DNA from: Minisyncoccota bacterium
GTDB lineage: Bacteria; Patescibacteriota; Minisyncoccia; Phycocordibacterales; SBAW01
Reading direction: 5' to 3'
Length of the DNA: 64,000 bases
Assembly (NCBI GenBank): GCA_035548815.1
Contig: DASZSF010000005.1
Span: forward strand, 182,177 to 246,176
Shown here: one piece after another, positions 32,534-47,632 of the stretch
Position numbering within the stretch: the first letter of the stretch is position 1
How the letters are laid out: each line of letters starts with the position of its first letter
Program-made: the position numbers and the translations under genes
Notes under the pieces: generated by a model
Databases searched by the model: none
Seen by the model: the letters and a program-made list of their open reading frames with translations, nothing else
Told to the model about the DNA's origin: nothing

Positions 32534-32788
32534 TTGAAAACTCTCGTCAATCTTTTCTCGAATATAATCATAAACCCACTCCTGGCATTACTGTTTGGAG
32601 TGGGTTTGTTGGTGTTTGTGTTCGGTGTTGCAGAATTTTTGTTTGAGTTTGATGTACGTGGCAACCAGACTGCACGAGAGGAGGGCAAAAAACATATGCT
32701 CTGGGGTGTTATAGGCATGTTTATCATGGCCTCAGCCTATAGCATCATTGAAGTTATCGCCTCAACGCTGGGAGCCAAACTTCCGTAA
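32534..32788 (+). CDS. TrbC/VirB2-like pilin-family small membrane protein (paralog 4)
   Basis: 84 aa with two TM helices and a DVRGNQTAREEGKK loop. Confidence 0.4.
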   Translation: MKTLVNLFSNIIINPLLALLFGVGLLVFVFGVAEFLFEFDVRGNQTAREEGKKHMLWGVIGMFIMASAYSIIEVIASTLGAKLP

Positions 32789-33337: not shown

Positions 33338-34560
33338 TAGTGGTCTCCTCCGTGATTGTCATGGCCGTGGTTACCGTTGGAGTCGTTTTTCTTGCCGCCT
33401 CCAAACGCTGCTGCCAAGCCTGCGGCAAAGGCGCCGAAGCCTCCGCCGATGTGCTTGGCTGTTTCAGTGGCTTCGGAATTGGTTTCAACCCGGATGATTC
33501 TCACATCCCGGTTGATGCCCTTTTCCTTGGCATTCAGCATCACTTTGTCCATTTCGTCCTGGAAGGTCGTCGTTGGCTTGCCGTCTACCATCGAGGCTTC
33601 GACATTCTTTCTTGCTGTACGTCGATAGATTTCCATCGTGATTTCGCCCTCGCGAGCTTCAGCATAGTCTGTCGGCAGCTTGAGAGTCCCAAGCACGACA
33701 CGTTCTACGGTTGCCCCGTATTGTTCTTCAAAGCTGCTGCCGCGCACGTCCCTGTCTTTGGGTTGTGAGGCTGCGAGGCCTGACTGGCCAGCCGGAGCCA
33801 CTTGTTCCGTGCCCGCAAGCGCTTCGATGAGCGATACCTGGATGTCAGGAATCTTGGCTGACAGCTCGTCCATGGTAACCTTGGCGACCTGTTCGCGCGC
33901 GTCGCTCTCGAAGATATCCAACGCTCCTTCGTTGATTGTTTCTGTTGAGTGGCTGATGTGCACCAACAGCAGCGGACCGAATGTACGCCAACGAACCGTC
34001 GGCTCGGGGAAGGTGGCGGTCAGCCCGTCCATTGTGGGGAACGAGATGGACCGGCCGAACGTACTACTTCGAAGCGATATGTAGTCGGTGTCCGGATTCA
34101 CAACCTCCCACGGCAAGCGGATATTGAACCAGCCTTGTGTAAATACATGCACGCGGCCGGTGAATATGTCCATCGCCATCGCTGCAGTCACTTTTGGCAC
34201 GGGCACCGACAGGTACCACGTGATGCATGAAAACTCAGCGATGAATAGACCGAGCGCCATTCCAATCCGGATTTTCGGTGGGAAGACGACCAGAAGATTC
34301 ATGATGTACGCATCGGGCACCAACACGATGAGCCCGATGACTGCCCATATGAGCAGTCGATCCCATGTATTCCCGGCTTTGCCGGTTATCTTGAGGCCAT
34401 AGCGCATGGCGATTTCTTGAAGCTCTGCCGGAGTTTTCTTTTGGATTCCGGCAGACTGAGAGGTTGGCATGGCTGGCGAATTCTTCGCCGAAGGCCATGC
34501 ATAGACAGCGCACGCAGCCGCGACGGCCACGAGCGAGAGGATGATGATAGGCAGAAGCAT
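33337..34560 (-). CDS. Membrane protein with possible SPFH/band-7-like domain and Gly/His-rich tail (GC3-rich)
   Basis: N-terminal TM helices, a GRVHVFTQGWFNIRLPWEVV segment resembling stomatin GRxxxxGPGLxFIxP, a coiled coil, and a C-terminal GGGFGAF...HGHDNHGGDH. Start placed at MLLP, which has a GAAAGGGG RBS. Confidence 0.4.
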   Translation of the reverse strand: MLLPIIILSLVAVAAACAVYAWPSAKNSPAMPTSQSAGIQKKTPAELQEIAMRYGLKITGKAGNTWDRLLIWAVIGLIVLVPDAYIMNLLVVFPPKIRIGMALGLFIAEFSCITWYLSVPVPKVTAAMAMDIFTGRVHVFTQGWFNIRLPWEVVNPDTDYISLRSSTFGRSISFPTMDGLTATFPEPTVRWRTFGPLLLVHISHSTETINEGALDIFESDAREQVAKVTMDELSAKIPDIQVSLIEALAGTEQVAPAGQSGLAASQPKDRDVRGSSFEEQYGATVERVVLGTLKLPTDYAEAREGEITMEIYRRTARKNVEASMVDGKPTTTFQDEMDKVMLNAKEKGINRDVRIIRVETNSEATETAKHIGGGFGAFAAGLAAAFGGGKKNDSNGNHGHDNHGGDH

Positions 34561-34733
34561 GTTGTCTACCCCTTTCTCAAAGGTCTGTGCGGCAGCGCCG
34601 CAGCGTGGTGAATGTCTGTCCATTCCAGAGCCGAAGCCATGGATGGTATTCCTTAGAATTATATCACAATAAAAGCTCTTTTGTCAAGCTAAAAAAGATA
34701 CAGAAAATAAGCGTTTTTTGGAAATTTGACGAG

Positions 34734-41214: not shown

Positions 41215-42018
41215 TTGAGCGTAATGGACCTCGAACACCTGACCAAACATCAAGTGATATTGCTCACGCTGTTGGTCAGCCTCGTGACTTCCATTGTGAC
41301 GGGCATTGTTACCGTATCGCTCATGAATCAGGCGCCTCAGGGTGTCACCCGCACGATTAACCAGATCGTTGAACACACCGTGCAAACCGTCGTTCCAGCC
41401 ACCCAAGGCGCAGCAGCGGCTACCGTTACGACAGAAAAAACAGTTGTCGTGAAAGACGACGACCTCACGGCCCAGTCTATTGCCGCAGTCCAAAAAGCCA
41501 TTGTCCGCATCACTGCACATGGCGATGATGCACTGGTTGCGCGCGGAGTCATTGTCGACTCGGCAGGCACTGCGCTCACCGACAGCGACGCGCTCAAGAG
41601 CTCGGGCGCAAAAGAGTTTGACGCGATCCTTTCAGACGGTTCGCGCGTCCCGGCCACTGTCATAGCGCCGGCAACCTCAAGCCCTATTGGCATGGTGACG
41701 GTGGCCTATGGGACGTCCACTGCGGTCACTGCAATAAAAATGGCTGATGTAAGTAAGGTAGCGTTGGGCCAAAGCGTCATCCGCATAGGCGGCAAAGGTG
41801 CAGATACGGTTGGCACGGGCGTCGTTGCAGCACTGCCAGGCAAAGGTTCCGACATTGAAGCAAGCGTTACGTCCGCAACTCCAGGCTCTATCCTTATGAC
41901 GATCTTTGGCGAACTCATTGGCATTTCAACGGCCGATTCTCTGACAGACGGTGCCGACTTCTATACCGTTCCGAAAGCTCCCGAACCCGACCCTAAACCA
42001 GTTCCGAAAACGCAGTAG
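41215..42018 (+). CDS. Membrane-anchored trypsin-like (HtrA/S1C-like) domain protein, possibly degenerate
   Basis: TM anchor followed by a layout resembling HtrA (RITAHGDDALVARGVIVDSAGTALT; VIRIGGKGADTVGTGVVAAL; TPGSILMTIFGELIGIST). The catalytic triad is not clearly conserved. Confidence 0.35.
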   Translation: MSVMDLEHLTKHQVILLTLLVSLVTSIVTGIVTVSLMNQAPQGVTRTINQIVEHTVQTVVPATQGAAAATVTTEKTVVVKDDDLTAQSIAAVQKAIVRITAHGDDALVARGVIVDSAGTALTDSDALKSSGAKEFDAILSDGSRVPATVIAPATSSPIGMVTVAYGTSTAVTAIKMADVSKVALGQSVIRIGGKGADTVGTGVVAALPGKGSDIEASVTSATPGSILMTIFGELIGISTADSLTDGADFYTVPKAPEPDPKPVPKTQ

Positions 42019-42041: not shown

Positions 42042-44726
42042 ATGCCTCCATTCAATCATTTCACTACGAAAGCAAAAGAGGCCGTCCGCCGAGCCCATGA
42101 ACTCGCGGTCGAACGCGGCCAAAATCAGGTAAGCCCGATGCACTTGTTGGGCGCTCTTCTGCTGCAGGAAGAATCGCTCGTCGTCACCATTGTTGAAAAG
42201 CTCGAAGTGGACATGGTGCTTCTCACAGACACCGTGCTAGAAAACTTGGAAGGGAATGCAGGCGGTGCGACACTTTCGCCCTCCTACCAGCTGTACCTCA
42301 CGCCCGAACTTGTGCAGGCGCTTGAACGTTCTGCAAAAGTGGCGACAGAACTCCACGACGAATTCGTCTCATGCGAGCATTTGTTAATTGCTATTTTGGA
42401 TGTGCCGGGCGCTGCACGCGAAACACTGGCTCGCTTCCGCATCACGCGCGAATCCGTGCTGCGCGCATTGTCCGAGCTTAAATCCTCAAAAGTTGCGACT
42501 GCAGCGCCAGAGAAAAAGAATCGTGCACTCACCAAGTACACCCGCTCGCTTACAAAGATGGCGGCCGAGAACAAACTCGACCCGGTCATCGGCCGCGACG
42601 AGGAAATAAAACGCGTCATCCAGATTCTTTCGCGCCGGACCAAGAACAACCCGATACTCATCGGCGAGGCGGGTGTTGGAAAGACCGCCATTGCAGAAGG
42701 GTTGGCTAGCCGTATAGCAGCTGGCGATGTCCCAGACTCGCTCCGCGATAAAGAACTTGTATCGCTCGACTTGGGTGCACTCATTGCAGGCACCAAGTAC
42801 CGCGGCGAATTTGAAGAGCGCTTGAAGGCGATAATGAAAGAGATCGAACGCTCTGAAGGCAAAGTACTGCTCTTCATCGACGAGATTCATACCATGATTG
42901 GTGCAGGTGCCGCAGAAGGTGCAATGGATGCGTCCAACATGCTGAAGCCGGCACTTGCACGCGGCGACATCCATGTCATTGGCGCAACCACGCTCCGCGA
43001 ATATCAAAAGCATATTGAACGCGATCCGGCATTCCAACGCCGCTTTCAACCGGTGTACGTCCTTGAACCAGGCGTTGAAGACGCAACCGCGATCTTGCGC
43101 GGCCTCAAAGAAAAATATGAACTTTTCCACGGTGTGCATATTACCGACGACGCGCTTGTGGGCGCAGTCGAACTTTCGGCCCGCTACATTCCGGACCGCT
43201 TCTTGCCCGATAAGGCAATCGACCTTATTGACGAGGCGTCATCGGCGTTGCGCATTAGCTTGGAAAACAAACCGCCTGCGCTTGAAGATGCGCACCGCAA
43301 AATCATGCGCTTGGAAGTTGAAAAGGAGGCGCTGCGCAAAGAGGCTGCTGAAGAAGGCGACAGCGCAGCAAAGAGCCGCACCAAAACAATTGAGAAAGAC
43401 ATTGCAGATTTGAAGGAAAAGACCGGCGAACTTGAAATGCGCTGGAAGAACGAAAAGCAGGTCCTGCTCGACATCAAAGCGATAAAGAAGGAATTGGAAA
43501 CGCTCCGCATGGAAGCAGACTCGGCTGAAGCGAGCGTGGATCTTTCGCGTGCGGCAGAGATCCGCTACGGCGAGATCCCAAGCCTCGAGCGCGATTTGGA
43601 GCAAAAGACAAAACGCTTGAAAAAGCTCCAAAGCACGCGTCGCATATTGAAGGAAGAAATTACTGAAACCGACATCGCAAGCGTTGTGTCGAAGTGGACG
43701 GGCATTCCTGTCTCGCGCATGCTTGAAGAGGAGGCTGAAAAGCTTTCGCGTATTGAAAACGTGCTTGAATCTCGCGTCGTGGGCCAAAAAGAGGCAGTGC
43801 AAAAAGTTGCCGATGCAGTAAAGCGCTCGCGCGCAGGCATCGCAGACCCGAACCGCCCCATCGCGTCTTTCATGTTCTTGGGCCCAACGGGCGTCGGCAA
43901 AACAGAACTTACGCGCGCATTGGCAGAGTTTATGTTCGACGACGAAAAGGCGCTGATCCGCGTCGATATGTCCGAATATATGGAAAAGCATTCGGTTAGC
44001 AAAATAATCGGCGCGCCTCCGGGCTATGTTGGCCACGAAGAGGGTGGGGCACTCACAGAACTTGTCCGCCACCGTCCGTATTCAGTGCTGTTGTTCGACG
44101 AAATTGAAAAAGCGCACCCAGAAGTATTCAACATCCTTCTGCAGGTGCTCGACAACGGTACGCTCACCGATGCAAAGGGCCGTCATGTGAACTTTCGCAA
44201 CACGATAATCATCATGACGAGCAACATCGGCGCCCAGTACATCGACAAGATGGAACAGCTCGGGTTCGCGGCATCGGCGACGGACGCAGCCAACTACGCG
44301 ATGGCGAAGGACCGCGTCGGCCAGGCGCTCAAGGACTACTTCCGCCCCGAATTCTTGAACCGCATCGACGAAATAATCATCTTCAACATTTTGGGTCCGG
44401 ACGCAATTCAGGAAATTGTTGGCATTCAAGTCAAAGAGGTCGTCGAGCGATTGGCGCAAAAGCATATCACGCTCACTATCAACAAAGGCGTGTACGAATA
44501 TTTGGCAAAAGAAGGATACAACCCGCACTACGGCGCCCGCCCGCTCCGCCGACTCATTCAAGATAAGATTCTTACGAAGGTTGCATCACTTATGGTCAGC
44601 CGCGGTGTGCTTTCAGGCGGCAGCGTGACTGTCGATATCAAGGCAGGGGAATTTGTCTTCGATGTAAAGAAAGGTCCGAAGGGTCGCACAAAGGTAGTAG
44701 CCTCAAACGAACTCCAAGCGGTCTAA
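42042..44726 (+). CDS. clpB: ATP-dependent chaperone ClpB
   Basis: Two AAA+ modules ([15 protein letters not shown]; [15 protein letters not shown]) with the long middle coiled-coil domain typical of ClpB. Confidence 0.95.
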
Positions 44727-44804
44727 CAATTAGAGATATATAAAGCAAGAACCCCGCACCAGACAATGTCTAGTAGCGGGGCTTTTTGCGTCACAGCGTT
44801 CGCG

Positions 44805-44915
44805 TTATGCGAGGCTGTCAACGTAGTTGCACAGGTCGACGATGACCTGATCGATGCTGAGAATGAACGCAGCATAGTTGCAGAGGTCGTCGACGATCTG
44901 GTCGATGGTGGTCAT
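44805..44915 (-). CDS. Small Cys-containing peptide (36 aa) with internal tandem repeat, GC3-rich
   Basis: MTTIDQIVDDLCNYAAFILSIDQVIVDLCNYVDSLA. AAGGAG RBS 7-8 nt upstream and a TTGACA-17-TATTAT promoter. About 85% GC3. Confidence 0.45.
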   Translation of the reverse strand: MTTIDQIVDDLCNYAAFILSIDQVIVDLCNYVDSLA

Positions 44916-44972
44916 GGTGTGTCTCCTTGCAGGGGCCTTGGGATCGATTCCCGCAGCTGTCTTTCGTATGTA

Positions 44973-45001
44973 ATAATACACTATATTACTATACTTGTCA
45001 A
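44973..45001 (-). promoter_or_regulatory. Sigma70-like promoter (TTGACA-17-TATTAT) for the 44.9-kb peptide
   Basis: Read on the minus strand: TTGACAagtatagtaatatagtgTATTAT. Divergent from tRNA-Tyr. Confidence 0.5.
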
Positions 45002-45083
45002 GTACCCCAAAAAAGCCCAAAAATAAGGCAAAAACAGTCGACAAAAACCCCGAAACGATGTATTTTATACATGTTCGATATAT

Positions 45084-45169
45084 GCGTCGGTGGTAGAGTG
45101 GTCAATTACACTTGGCTGTAAACCAAGCGCCTCACGGCTACGTAGGTTCGAATCCTACCCGGCGCACCA
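45084..45169 (+). tRNA. tRNA-Tyr (anticodon GTA), CCA encoded
   Basis: GCGTCGGTGGTAGAGTGGTCAATTACACTTGGCTGTAAACCAAG + long variable arm + GTAGG-TTCGAAT-CCTAC CCGGCGC A CCA. Confidence 0.8.
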
Positions 45170-45195: not shown

Positions 45196-46137
45196 ATGAA
45201 AGTGTTTAAGAGCCCGCTCTTTTGGTTTGGCGTATTTTTTCTGACACCTGCGGCAGTTGTGTTCGGGGCTGATGCGCTGACGCCCTGCGGTACGCTCGCG
45301 TTTACGGGGTCGTATGGCCCTGGGTACTTTCTCTCGGCGACCAGCTGTAACTTTTGCTATTTAGCCAAGCTCATCCAAAATATCGTGAATTTTTTGCTGA
45401 TGGTCGCCATCCCGATTTCCGTGGCGATGTTTGCTTGGGCAGGCGTTATGTACTTTACGGCAGGGGGGAATCCGGCGCGGGCTGAACGTGGGCGCAAGAT
45501 TTTTGCTGCAGTATTGTTGGGCTTCTGCATCGCGCTTGGTGCCTGGCTGTTCGTGCAGGTGTTTCTCCAAACGGTAACGAATCCTAATTTCTTCAGCGCA
45601 AACAACTGGATAAATCTTGATTGCAGTACCTTCAATGATCAGCGTTCCCGCAATGTGTCCATCAGCACGGTGCTTTCTGGAAACGGACTTGCGCCTTCGA
45701 CTGTGACAAGCGACCCAACGAGTCCGACTCTAGCGCCACCGCCTGACAGTGGTGAAATTCAGGCAGCTATTTCACAAGCAACAAGTCGTTATATTGGCAC
45801 AGTAACCACTGCCGGTCCAGGTGGGGGAAATTTAGCATGCGCATGGGCGGTAAATAATATTCTCGGCAGCGCAGGCATTTCATCAATTGATGGCGATAGT
45901 GTGCCGGACATGGAGACAGTGCTCAAATCTGGAAGAGGGCAGCCCGTTGACCAGTCGCAAGGCCAGCCGGGTGATATCGTTATACAGGGGAACCAATGGC
46001 ATGTCGGAATTTGCCAAGATGTTGGGTGCACCCGAGTTATATCAAACTCCTCTGGCGCGCGCAGTTTTACGAACGACCAAACGATGTCTGCGTTTTCAAG
46101 AGGTGCGCAAAGCCGTGTATACCGTGTAGTAAATTAA
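45196..46137 (+). CDS. Pilin-like (TrbC/VirB2-type) N-terminal module fused to CHAP/NlpC-P60-like putative cell-wall hydrolase domain
   Basis: The N-terminus has a signal peptide, four Cys and two TM helices (IQNIVNFLLMVAIPISVAMFAWAG...GAWLFVQVF), homologous to the 31.4-kb paralogs. A Ser/Thr/Pro linker follows. The C-terminus has the Cys...His pair GNLACAWAVNNIL...PGDIVIQGNQWHVGI typical of CHAP. Confidence 0.45.
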   Translation: MKVFKSPLFWFGVFFLTPAAVVFGADALTPCGTLAFTGSYGPGYFLSATSCNFCYLAKLIQNIVNFLLMVAIPISVAMFAWAGVMYFTAGGNPARAERGRKIFAAVLLGFCIALGAWLFVQVFLQTVTNPNFFSANNWINLDCSTFNDQRSRNVSISTVLSGNGLAPSTVTSDPTSPTLAPPPDSGEIQAAISQATSRYIGTVTTAGPGGGNLACAWAVNNILGSAGISSIDGDSVPDMETVLKSGRGQPVDQSQGQPGDIVIQGNQWHVGICQDVGCTRVISNSSGARSFTNDQTMSAFSRGAQSRVYRVVN

Positions 46138-46138
46138 T

Positions 46139-46552
46139 ATGAAACGCTCTACAGCAACCCTCATAGTTATAGCAGTCCTCGGCGGTCTGCTTGCGTGCGT
46201 TATATATTCTGGGAAAGTCACTCACCTTCTTCGACAGAATACTTTTTTTGCTGCAGTTGGGACGGCGCAATCAGTAAAAACAGTCGCAGGTGTTAAGGCT
46301 GCTGTGCAGGCTCATGTACCGGCAGGTATTTCAATGATATTTGGAGCAACCAGCATGGAAGATATATATGCGCTTCAAGTGTGGGGCGCTGACGACATGG
46401 GGGGAGAAGCGCTTTTGATGTACGACAGCACAAACAATGAGTGGAATTTCGTGTCGTGGGGCGGCGGAGCCTGGAGCGCAGAAGGCCTCACGCGGTCAGA
46501 AGGAGTGCCACAAGACACAGCAGAGGCGCTGCTCGGCGGGCTGCCCAACTAA
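46139..46552 (+). CDS. Hypothetical small membrane protein between the two pilin-fusion genes
   Basis: 137 aa with an N-terminal TM and a Trp/Gly-rich soluble part. ATG lies 1 nt after the upstream stop. Confidence 0.4.
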   Translation: MKRSTATLIVIAVLGGLLACVIYSGKVTHLLRQNTFFAAVGTAQSVKTVAGVKAAVQAHVPAGISMIFGATSMEDIYALQVWGADDMGGEALLMYDSTNNEWNFVSWGGGAWSAEGLTRSEGVPQDTAEALLGGLPN

Positions 46553-46555
46553 TGT

Positions 46556-47632
46556 ATGAAGCGACTCATTCCATCGCGCACAACGCTCATCTCCGCCGGA
46601 GTATTCTTCTTTGGCGTGCCGCTCTATGTGTGGGCGGCGCAAACTGGGCTGGTTCCATGCGGCACTGCCAGCTTTACCGGTTTGTATGATTCTAATTACT
46701 ATTTGCAGGCAACCAATTGCAATCTGTGCTACTTTGCACAGCTGATTCAAAATATCGTCAACTTTTTGCTCATGGTCACCATTCCGATTTCGGTGGCGAT
46801 GTTTGCTTGGGCAGGCTTCAAATATCTTACAGCGGGCGGGGATGTAAAGAGAATAAGCCGCGCACATAATATTTTTTCTTCCGTATTTATCGGTTTTTGC
46901 ATCGCGCTCGGTGCATGGCTGTTTGTGCAGGTTGTTTTGCAAGCAGTCACAAGCAGCAACTATTTGCCCAGCAGCTTTTTTAACTTGAGCTCCTGCAGCC
47001 AGCAAAATGACATACGCCGGCGTGATGAAGCGCTAAGTACTGTATTGAGCGGGAATGGCCTTGCACCAACTGTTACAGGAGCGCCCTCAAGTGGTGGCGG
47101 AGTATTCTGTCCGAGCGGGTATGAGCTTTACCTTGGTTCTTGTTACAACCCTACGACGAACGATATTGTTAGCGCAACGATCGGTTCTTCTGCTGCGAGC
47201 ACAAGAGGTCGTGTCGTAATTACTAACCCGGATGGCACGCAGACCGAGATGATCGACGGCTCACCTTCGTGGCGAAGAAACAATCCGGGAAATATGATAG
47301 CAGGGGCTGGCCAGTACCAGCCGATAGGAATGGATGGAGGATTCGCAGTCTTTGCGAGCTACGAGGACGGGTTCAACGCAATGCTCGCAAACCTTAAAAG
47401 CCCTCTATACCAAAATGGCAACATGACGATAGCAGCTGCTCTCTATAGATGGGCGCCACCCATTCCAGGGTCAGGAAATGACCCTGTTAAATATGCAGCG
47501 TTCGTACAAAGCACAACAGGAATCCCTTCAAGCACAGTAATAAATAACCTCACCCAGGAACAGCTTGTTGCAGTGGCAACAGCGATGCGCACACAAGAAG
47601 GTTGGAGTGTTGGGAGGACAATTTCCCGCTAA
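46556..47632 (+). CDS. Pilin-like N-terminal module fused to a different, unassigned C-terminal domain
   Basis: The N-terminal ~150 aa are paralogous to 45196..46137, with ~88% DNA identity over 46748-46817 vs 45376-45445 and a shared STVLSGNGLAP junction. The C-terminus is unrelated (WRRNNPGNMIAG...GFAVFASYEDGFNAML...YRWAPP). Confidence 0.45.
   Translation: MKRLIPSRTTLISAGVFFFGVPLYVWAAQTGLVPCGTASFTGLYDSNYYLQATNCNLCYFAQLIQNIVNFLLMVTIPISVAMFAWAGFKYLTAGGDVKRISRAHNIFSSVFIGFCIALGAWLFVQVVLQAVTSSNYLPSSFFNLSSCSQQNDIRRRDEALSTVLSGNGLAPTVTGAPSSGGGVFCPSGYELYLGSCYNPTTNDIVSATIGSSAASTRGRVVITNPDGTQTEMIDGSPSWRRNNPGNMIAGAGQYQPIGMDGGFAVFASYEDGFNAMLANLKSPLYQNGNMTIAAALYRWAPPIPGSGNDPVKYAAFVQSTTGIPSSTVINNLTQEQLVAVATAMRTQEGWSVGRTISR

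Follow-up and report, generated by a model that had tools for sequence, protein, structure and literature searches.

Small proteins of at most 50 aa that are encoded by short open reading frames (sORFs) are a known class of bacterial gene products, with SgrT, MciZ, Sda and SpoVM as examples; these are named here as representatives of the kind, not as homologues. The gene described here, a 36-codon ORF on the minus strand of a 64-kb stretch of DNA (the whole stretch that was analysed, hereafter the window), would be of this kind, with a product that is a family-less member of the class. As in other sORF genes, the unit stands alone and resembles that of a small RNA, with its own promoter, Shine-Dalgarno (SD) sequence and terminator, and it was missed by automatic annotation. 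Its product is a predicted single helix, too short to form a domain, that would be expected to bind a larger partner, as is the case for known sORF proteins. Unlike many characterised sORF proteins, which are inserted in membranes, this peptide is strongly acidic and soluble-looking. It also differs from the examples above in that it belongs to no sequence family, is built from an internal tandem duplication, and was found in one MAG only.

A second group of described peptides that has to be considered includes delta-haemolysin, which is encoded in RNAIII, and the phenol-soluble modulins, i.e., amphipathic helical peptides that lack a signal and have their genes within small RNAs. The product of the gene under study is likewise short and amphipathic and has no signal peptide, and the gene has a strong promoter and a short predicted transcript that could be dual-function. 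Conversely, no Pmt-type exporter is located nearby, there is no sequence similarity to these peptides, and a net charge of -6 speaks against the lysis of membranes. Genomes of the Candidate Phyla Radiation (CPR), to which the host belongs, are small, and nearly every gene in them is thought to matter; to our knowledge, the small proteins of CPR bacteria are essentially unexplored. A literature search on small proteins in the CPR matched only a general review, and a search combining Shine-Dalgarno, leaderless and Patescibacteria found nothing. If real, the gene would provide a clean case, in a CPR bacterium, of a lineage-specific micropeptide gene that escaped annotation, as well as an example of a gene built by internal duplication at a variable spot beside a tRNA gene.

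The gene is located between clpB (42042-44726, plus strand) and tRNA-Tyr (GTA; 45084-45169, plus strand), from which it is divergent. Two T4SS_pilin (PF18895) genes, with starts at 45196 and 46556 on the plus strand, follow 3' of the tRNA gene. This location agrees with the original prediction, and the same holds for the expression signals and the reading frame that it described. The ORF runs from 44915 to 44808 on the minus strand, followed by a TAA stop codon (44807-44805), and encodes MTTIDQIVDDLCNYAAFILSIDQVIVDLCNYVDSLA, the Cys-containing 36-aa peptide that had been proposed. It is preceded by a sigma-70-type promoter, TTGACA-17 nt-TATTAT (44973..45001, minus strand), which matches the consensus in 11 of 12 positions. 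Transcription would start near 44966, giving a putative 5' leader of ~51 nt (44916..44966, minus strand). The SD sequence AAGGAG (44928..44923, minus strand) is located 7 nt 5' of the ATG, and the leader contains no in-frame start codon before this ATG; a longer, 79-aa version of the minus-strand ORF begins with a TTG codon upstream of the promoter. At the other end, a hairpin terminator (44745..44789) with a T-rich tract after it on each strand is common to the convergent clpB (plus strand) and the small gene (minus strand). The hairpin has a folding energy of -25.3 kcal/mol (z = -4.9) and was also scored as an inverted repeat (I2), and a terminator-like site was found on the minus strand at 44757-44745. 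On the tRNA-Tyr side, an A/T-tract spacer (45002-45037) separates the promoter of the small gene from a promoter-like site of the plus strand, TCGACA-17-TATTTT (45038-45066), so that the promoters of the small gene and tRNA-Tyr are back-to-back. The order and the spacing of the promoter, the SD sequence, the start codon, the stop codon and the terminator are correct for a small-protein gene.

We estimated how frequently such signals are found in the window. Promoters with at least 11 of 12 matching positions occur four times on both strands of the 64 kb, including the promoter of the small gene, compared to 0.67 expected from shuffled sequences. An SD sequence of at least 6 nt located 3-12 nt from the start was found for 8 of the 2137 ATGs of the window. 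The combination of promoter, SD sequence and ATG is expected by chance ~0.004 times per window, according to a rough joint estimate from the separate rates. It should be noted that the long genes of the window mostly have no SD sequence and that a TAnAnT box is frequent 6-12 nt upstream of their ATG, a sequence pattern that suggests widespread leaderless mRNAs in the host CPR genome. Starts of the TAnAnT-like type were seen, for example, at 41224, 5447, 14417(-), 23908 and 59651(-). Since most host genes are SD-less and leaderless-looking, the architecture of the small gene is atypical for the host. GGAGG-type or otherwise strong SD sequences precede some long ORFs (119, 154 and 195 aa), which are probably real genes. 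The design with a leader and an SD sequence is a minority style in the host genome, yet a plausible one.

We trained a codon log-odds model with 39 long ORFs from the window. The minus-strand ORF has a score of +13.1 bits, compared to 11.5 +/- 7.2 bits for 36-codon windows of real genes, whereas the opposite in-register frame scores +10.1 bits over the same 36 codons. The in-register antisense windows of real genes have a mean of -6.3 bits; 0.5% of them reach 13.1 bits and 2.3% reach 10.1 bits. The gene-like codon signal ends at the limits of the 36-codon ORF. The GC content by codon position in the minus-strand ORF is 0.53/0.25/0.83 (heterogeneity p = 4e-6), and a GC3 of at least 0.83 is found in 5% of the 36-codon windows of clpB itself. 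The locus had been described as a GC3-rich micro-island. The GC3 value in the ORF is 0.83, in a window with a GC content of 51%, but the island was overstated, the total GC content of the region (0.53-0.56) being similar to that of the flanks. A GC island of foreign origin is not supported. Codon by codon, the plus frame is exactly complementary to the minus frame; therefore, the high GC3 of the minus strand equals a high GC1 of the plus strand. As both frames are gene-like, composition alone cannot pick the strand and leans only slightly to the minus strand. The antisense of an amphipathic helix is also amphipathic, and the +10.1 bits of the opposite frame were counted against the minus-strand reading.

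A 17-codon unit, present in two diverged copies, makes up almost the whole ORF. The first copy includes codons 3-15 (TIDQIVDDLCNYA; 44870..44910, minus strand) and the second copy includes codons 20-32 (SIDQVIVDLCNYV; 44819..44859, minus strand). At the DNA level, the units IDQIVDDLCNY and IDQVIVDLCNY are seen as a direct repeat of 41 nt (family D1) with 80% identity and a period of 51 nt, i.e., 17 codons. Among 5000 codon shuffles, none reached this repeat, either at the amino-acid or at the DNA level; thus, the two IDQ...DLCNY units of the original prediction represent a real tandem duplication. The 11-codon cores have three synonymous and three nonsynonymous differences, two of them I/V swaps, and, because the plus frame gives a similar count of differences, this comparison of synonymous and nonsynonymous changes is uninformative. 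No paralogue of the small gene and no duplicated fragment of tRNA-Tyr were found in the window. The search for mobile-element flanks detected only a 14-nt direct repeat with 79% identity (44798 and 45073), consistent with chance. An origin from the neighbouring pilins was also considered and rejected, the CN[FY]...IQNIV-type resemblance being not significant in Smith-Waterman comparisons to shuffles (p = 0.72 and 0.12). As to the pilin paralogues themselves (45196-47632, plus strand), they share ~58% identity over the first ~170 residues and differ in their C-terminal extensions, and a 137-aa ORF without a family is located between the two genes. Their GC content is unusually flat across codon positions (0.53/0.51/0.52 and 0.50/0.50/0.51).

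AlphaFold2 with the single sequence as input predicted one helix, which includes residues 4-35, with a pLDDT of 81. In one heptad register, all ten a and d positions are hydrophobic (IILYIIILVL) in five uninterrupted heptads, and a hydrophobic moment of 0.45 was obtained at 102.9 degrees, a value reached by 0.06% of shuffles; both statistics are inflated, since the two halves of the peptide are mutual copies. The peptide contains six Asp residues and no Lys, Arg, His or Glu, resulting in a net charge of -6, and its polar face consists entirely of Asp, Asn, Gln and Ser. There is one Cys per repeat (positions 12 and 29). No membrane segment was detected: the best 19-residue Kyte-Doolittle window has a value of 1.5, and Asp is included in it. 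Neither a signal peptide nor a double-glycine leader is present in the 36 aa. The product is predicted to form one amphipathic alpha-helix of 32 residues, in which a hydrophobic a/d(/e) stripe is combined with a face that is strongly acidic. In the model, the continuous helix with I, L, V or Y at every a and d position is similar to those of homo-oligomeric coiled-coil peptides. Unlike usual coiled coils, the peptide has no Lys or Arg, and the usual e/g salt bridges are absent; the charge repulsion in a coiled coil of this type may require a basic partner or cations.

The relatives of the host identified by ClpB belong to Adlerbacteria/Paceibacteria of the CPR (68-87% ClpB identity). For the comparison of gene neighbourhoods, we used a clpB-anchored set of 80 loci of relatives. 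Across Paceibacteria, the order clpB-tRNA-Tyr is conserved, and the spacer is usually 2-130 nt long, with room for the terminator and the tRNA promoter only. Compared to these spacers, the 357-nt spacer of the studied genome contains ~210 extra nt, which represent an added unit. Neither the peptide nor DNA similar to the 357-nt spacer was found in any of the 80 clpB loci. The junction itself is variable, as seen downstream of clpB in loci L007, L021, L009, L012, L004 and L015, with spacers from 2 nt to 4.3 kb and with tRNA-Tyr in either orientation. The larger spacers of relatives (inserts of 0.2-4.3 kb) hold unrelated ORFs. The variety of inserts, together with the absence of the peptide from all 80 loci, indicates that the junction is a variable spot and that the small unit is lineage-specific. 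Among the individual loci, L007 has a 4.3-kb insert at the junction with heavy-metal-ATPase-like ORFs, whereas L002 and L006 have tRNA-Asn 3' of clpB in place of tRNA-Tyr. In ~20 relatives, tRNA-Tyr and a T4SS-pilin-like gene are located within a few kb after clpB, and none of these relatives has the peptide. Therefore, the pilin genes do not need the peptide, and the suggestion that it regulates the pilin cassette was not supported.

The search for the peptide and its repeat in relatives and metagenomes, which the original prediction had called for, revealed no homologue in the protein and DNA collections either. The exact 36-aa peptide has no database record. Because the 36-residue peptide is too short, the 79-aa extension served as the homologue query; a 36-residue query picks up fairly close relatives only, and remote homologues could be missed. 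The 79-aa extension had no word-sharing candidate among 5.8e9 protein clusters, and an exhaustive HMMER search of 1.84e9 representative proteins found no true homologue. The lone HMMER match, a 1334-aa repeat protein (P0001), was rejected as spurious, being without an aligned stretch. The DNA pattern for IDQ[IV][IV][VD]DLCNY is absent in the viral and metagenome contigs searched. For the relaxed pattern IDQxxxDLCNY, nothing was found in viral contigs, and nine matches in metagenomes were rejected as chance, as they are located in unrelated or very short frames and have no second unit. A double-DLCNY pattern gave nothing in viral contigs, tblastn against phages and plasmids was empty, and the peptide had no match in sequence searches of Pfam, PHROGs, NCBIfam and PDB. 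Overall, the peptide frame is not conserved in relatives, but the opposite strand is not conserved there either.

We suggest that the locus is a lineage-specific small-protein gene, whose product is an amphipathic, acidic coiled-coil micropeptide that acts in the cytoplasm via self-association or docking to a partner; the probability that we assign to this reading is roughly 50%. The unit would have been inserted, or would have arisen, in the normally very short clpB/tRNA-Tyr spacer of an Adlerbacteria-like (Paceibacteria, CPR) genome. The near-consensus promoter would fire leftwards, away from the promoter of tRNA-Tyr. The resulting RNA would be ~215 nt long and would include the 51-nt leader with AAGGAG, the 36 codons, and the clpB hairpin serving as a bidirectional terminator. 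The putative translation product is a cytoplasmic micropeptide that may self-associate as a coiled coil or a helical bundle, or may dock on a partner protein by its hydrophobic stripe. The acidic face and the two Cys residues would then be free to mimic charge, bind metal or form disulfide cross-links. A narrower version of this proposal is a long shot: the micropeptide gene might be recently born, from a tandem duplication of the 51-nt unit and a new promoter back-to-back with that of tRNA-Tyr, and its extremely acidic coiled-coil helix might act as a decoy or an inhibitor of a basic partner (e.g., a nucleic-acid-binding or host-interaction protein). If this narrower version is true, the peptide would represent a protein family that is so far without relatives.

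The strongest of the alternatives, and still an unlikely one, is evolutionary noise. Here the unit would be a young insert, possibly generated de novo or by duplication, with fortuitous or decaying signals and without a selected function, whether or not it is expressed. The absence of the unit from all relatives and databases searched is consistent with noise, and so is the variability of the clpB/tRNA-Tyr junction with its unrelated inserts of 0.2-4.3 kb in relatives. Against this, chance is unlikely to bring together a promoter with 11 of 12 matches, a 6-mer SD sequence at 7 nt, an ATG, a clean stop codon and a terminator, in addition to a perfect heptad stripe and to codon usage that is gene-like within the ORF only. 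Furthermore, the copies of the repeat have diverged by 20%, yet IDQ...DLCNY and the hydrophobic pattern are retained in both.

The unit may also act as RNA, i.e., as a ~215-nt sRNA or a dual-function RNA, such as a regulator at the clpB 3' end that acts in antisense or shares the terminator, with an incidental ORF; we regard this as distinctly unlikely. It is consistent with the strong promoter and the terminator, which bound a short transcript convergent with clpB. Another short unit bounded by a promoter and a terminator, and without a clean ORF, is found in a convergent spacer of the same window (20484-20600). However, an Rfam search detected nothing at gathering thresholds or at E <= 10, save tRNA and trivial hairpin matches. 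The leader and the ORF fold no better than shuffles (z = -0.59), and the z of -2.9 obtained for the whole unit is due to the inclusion of the terminator. Complementarity of the unit to the rest of the window does not extend beyond 12-mers. In addition, an sRNA needs neither 3-nt periodicity nor a gene-like codon score nor a correctly spaced SD sequence and ATG. A structured RNA or a riboswitch was rejected based on the lack of an Rfam match and the fold z of -0.59. An attenuator leader peptide was rejected as well, as the sole features downstream on the minus strand are the terminator and the 3' end of clpB, which is convergent.

A secreted or toxic peptide is highly improbable, whether taken as a toxin of type I, as a bacteriocin of the leaderless or class II kind, or as the precursor of a RiPP in which DLCNY forms two cores; this concerns two of the roles proposed in the original prediction. 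The short length, the repeated unit with Cys and Tyr, the strong expression signals and the adjacent surface-structure (T4SS_pilin) genes are the points in its favour. Type I toxins (Hok, Ldr, Ibs, TisB, Fst; ~20-60 aa) are of similar size and, similarly to the studied gene, are independent small intergenic units. However, the peptide has no transmembrane helix, no basic residue and a charge of -6, and a small toxin is therefore not supported. No convincing promoter of an antisense RNA was found: the promoter-like sites of the plus strand match in only 9 of 12 positions (at 44995 and 45038), and both face tRNA-Tyr, away from the ORF. Precursors of RiPPs with repeated cores or Cys/Tyr motifs are closer in appearance, being small acidic peptides, and the repeated Cys-x-Tyr unit has a counterpart in mycofactocin MftA, which has the C-terminal Cys/Tyr motif ...CGVY; we note MftA as a lead only. 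The differences are that the Cys-x-Tyr motif is internal to the predicted helix, that there is no leader and no precursor family match in NCBIfam or Pfam (nor any match in PHROGs), and that no maturation enzyme, peptidase or transporter was identified nearby. Specifically, none of the ORFs within ~8 kb was identified as a radical-SAM protein, a YcaO, a lanthipeptide synthetase, a peptidase or an ABC transporter. The family-matched neighbours in this range are rbfA, infB, DUF4446, a class-V aminotransferase, clpB, the two T4SS_pilin genes, a CMAS methyltransferase, a PIF1 helicase and an OMP decarboxylase; several ORFs within ~8 kb have no family match. Leaderless and class II bacteriocins are cationic and have an immunity or transport gene adjacent, in contrast to the charge of -6 and the lack of a transporter near the small gene.

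The opposite strand carries a deposited gene call, an 86-aa ORF (44766..45026, plus strand), which we judged to be spurious. It was called on contig CAZMXM010000007.1 of GCA_964570245.1, where the locus of the small gene lies at about positions 226,978-227,174. That this ORF is the real gene is hardly credible: it was called by an annotation pipeline, its central 36 codons score +10.1 bits and most genes of the genome lack an SD sequence anyway, but its ATG falls within the apical loop of the hairpin that terminates clpB, past the expected stop of plus-strand transcription, its first 14 and last 36 codons are non-coding by score (-3.2 bits each), its C-terminal tail is the AT-rich promoter in translation, and its only match in the database search is itself. 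The coding-like part of the call is just the stretch opposite the 36 codons. The strand choice is thus decided by anatomy, namely the ATG at the hairpin apex and the non-coding flanks, and not by composition. As judged from the sequence, the minus-strand mini-gene is a better gene model than the 86-aa call, in agreement with the earlier view that this antisense call lacks the signals of the minus-strand ORF, and it corrects a call of the deposited MAG that is probably on the wrong strand.

Several other features of the window were noted in the course of the analysis. A tRNA-like element is located at 20404-20480 (plus strand), with the T-arm GAGGGTTCGATTCCCTC and the acceptor GCCGGC; it is uncalled by ARAGORN and sub-threshold in Rfam. 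Its central part includes a 19-bp long-range helix formed by 20424-20442 with 20520-20538, and the 201-nt segment 20404-20600 (plus strand) has a fold z of -7.1. The short unit near 20484 has a promoter with 11 of 12 matches (TTGACA-18-TATACT) and a strong terminator at ~20560-20597. The segment 20404-20600 could represent either an sRNA or a tRNA-like RNA that is unusual or interrupted. Upstream of an S1-like gene, ~1.2 kb (21772-22950) are without a long ORF and contain a promoter with 11 of 12 matches at 22910 (minus strand); no Rfam family was found for this region at E <= 1, and it is a candidate for an unannotated RNA gene or a decayed region. An intergenic small ORF at 32696-32788 (plus strand), preceded by AGGAGG, encodes the 30-aa hydrophobic peptide MLWGVIGMFIMASAYSIIEVIASTLGAKLP, a candidate small membrane protein by its sequence. 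The sole perfect promoter of the window (12 of 12 matches, TTGACA-18-TATAAT) is located at 34659-34687 on the minus strand; after it, a hairpin capped by UUCG directly precedes or overlaps the start of a 428-aa ORF (33340-34623).
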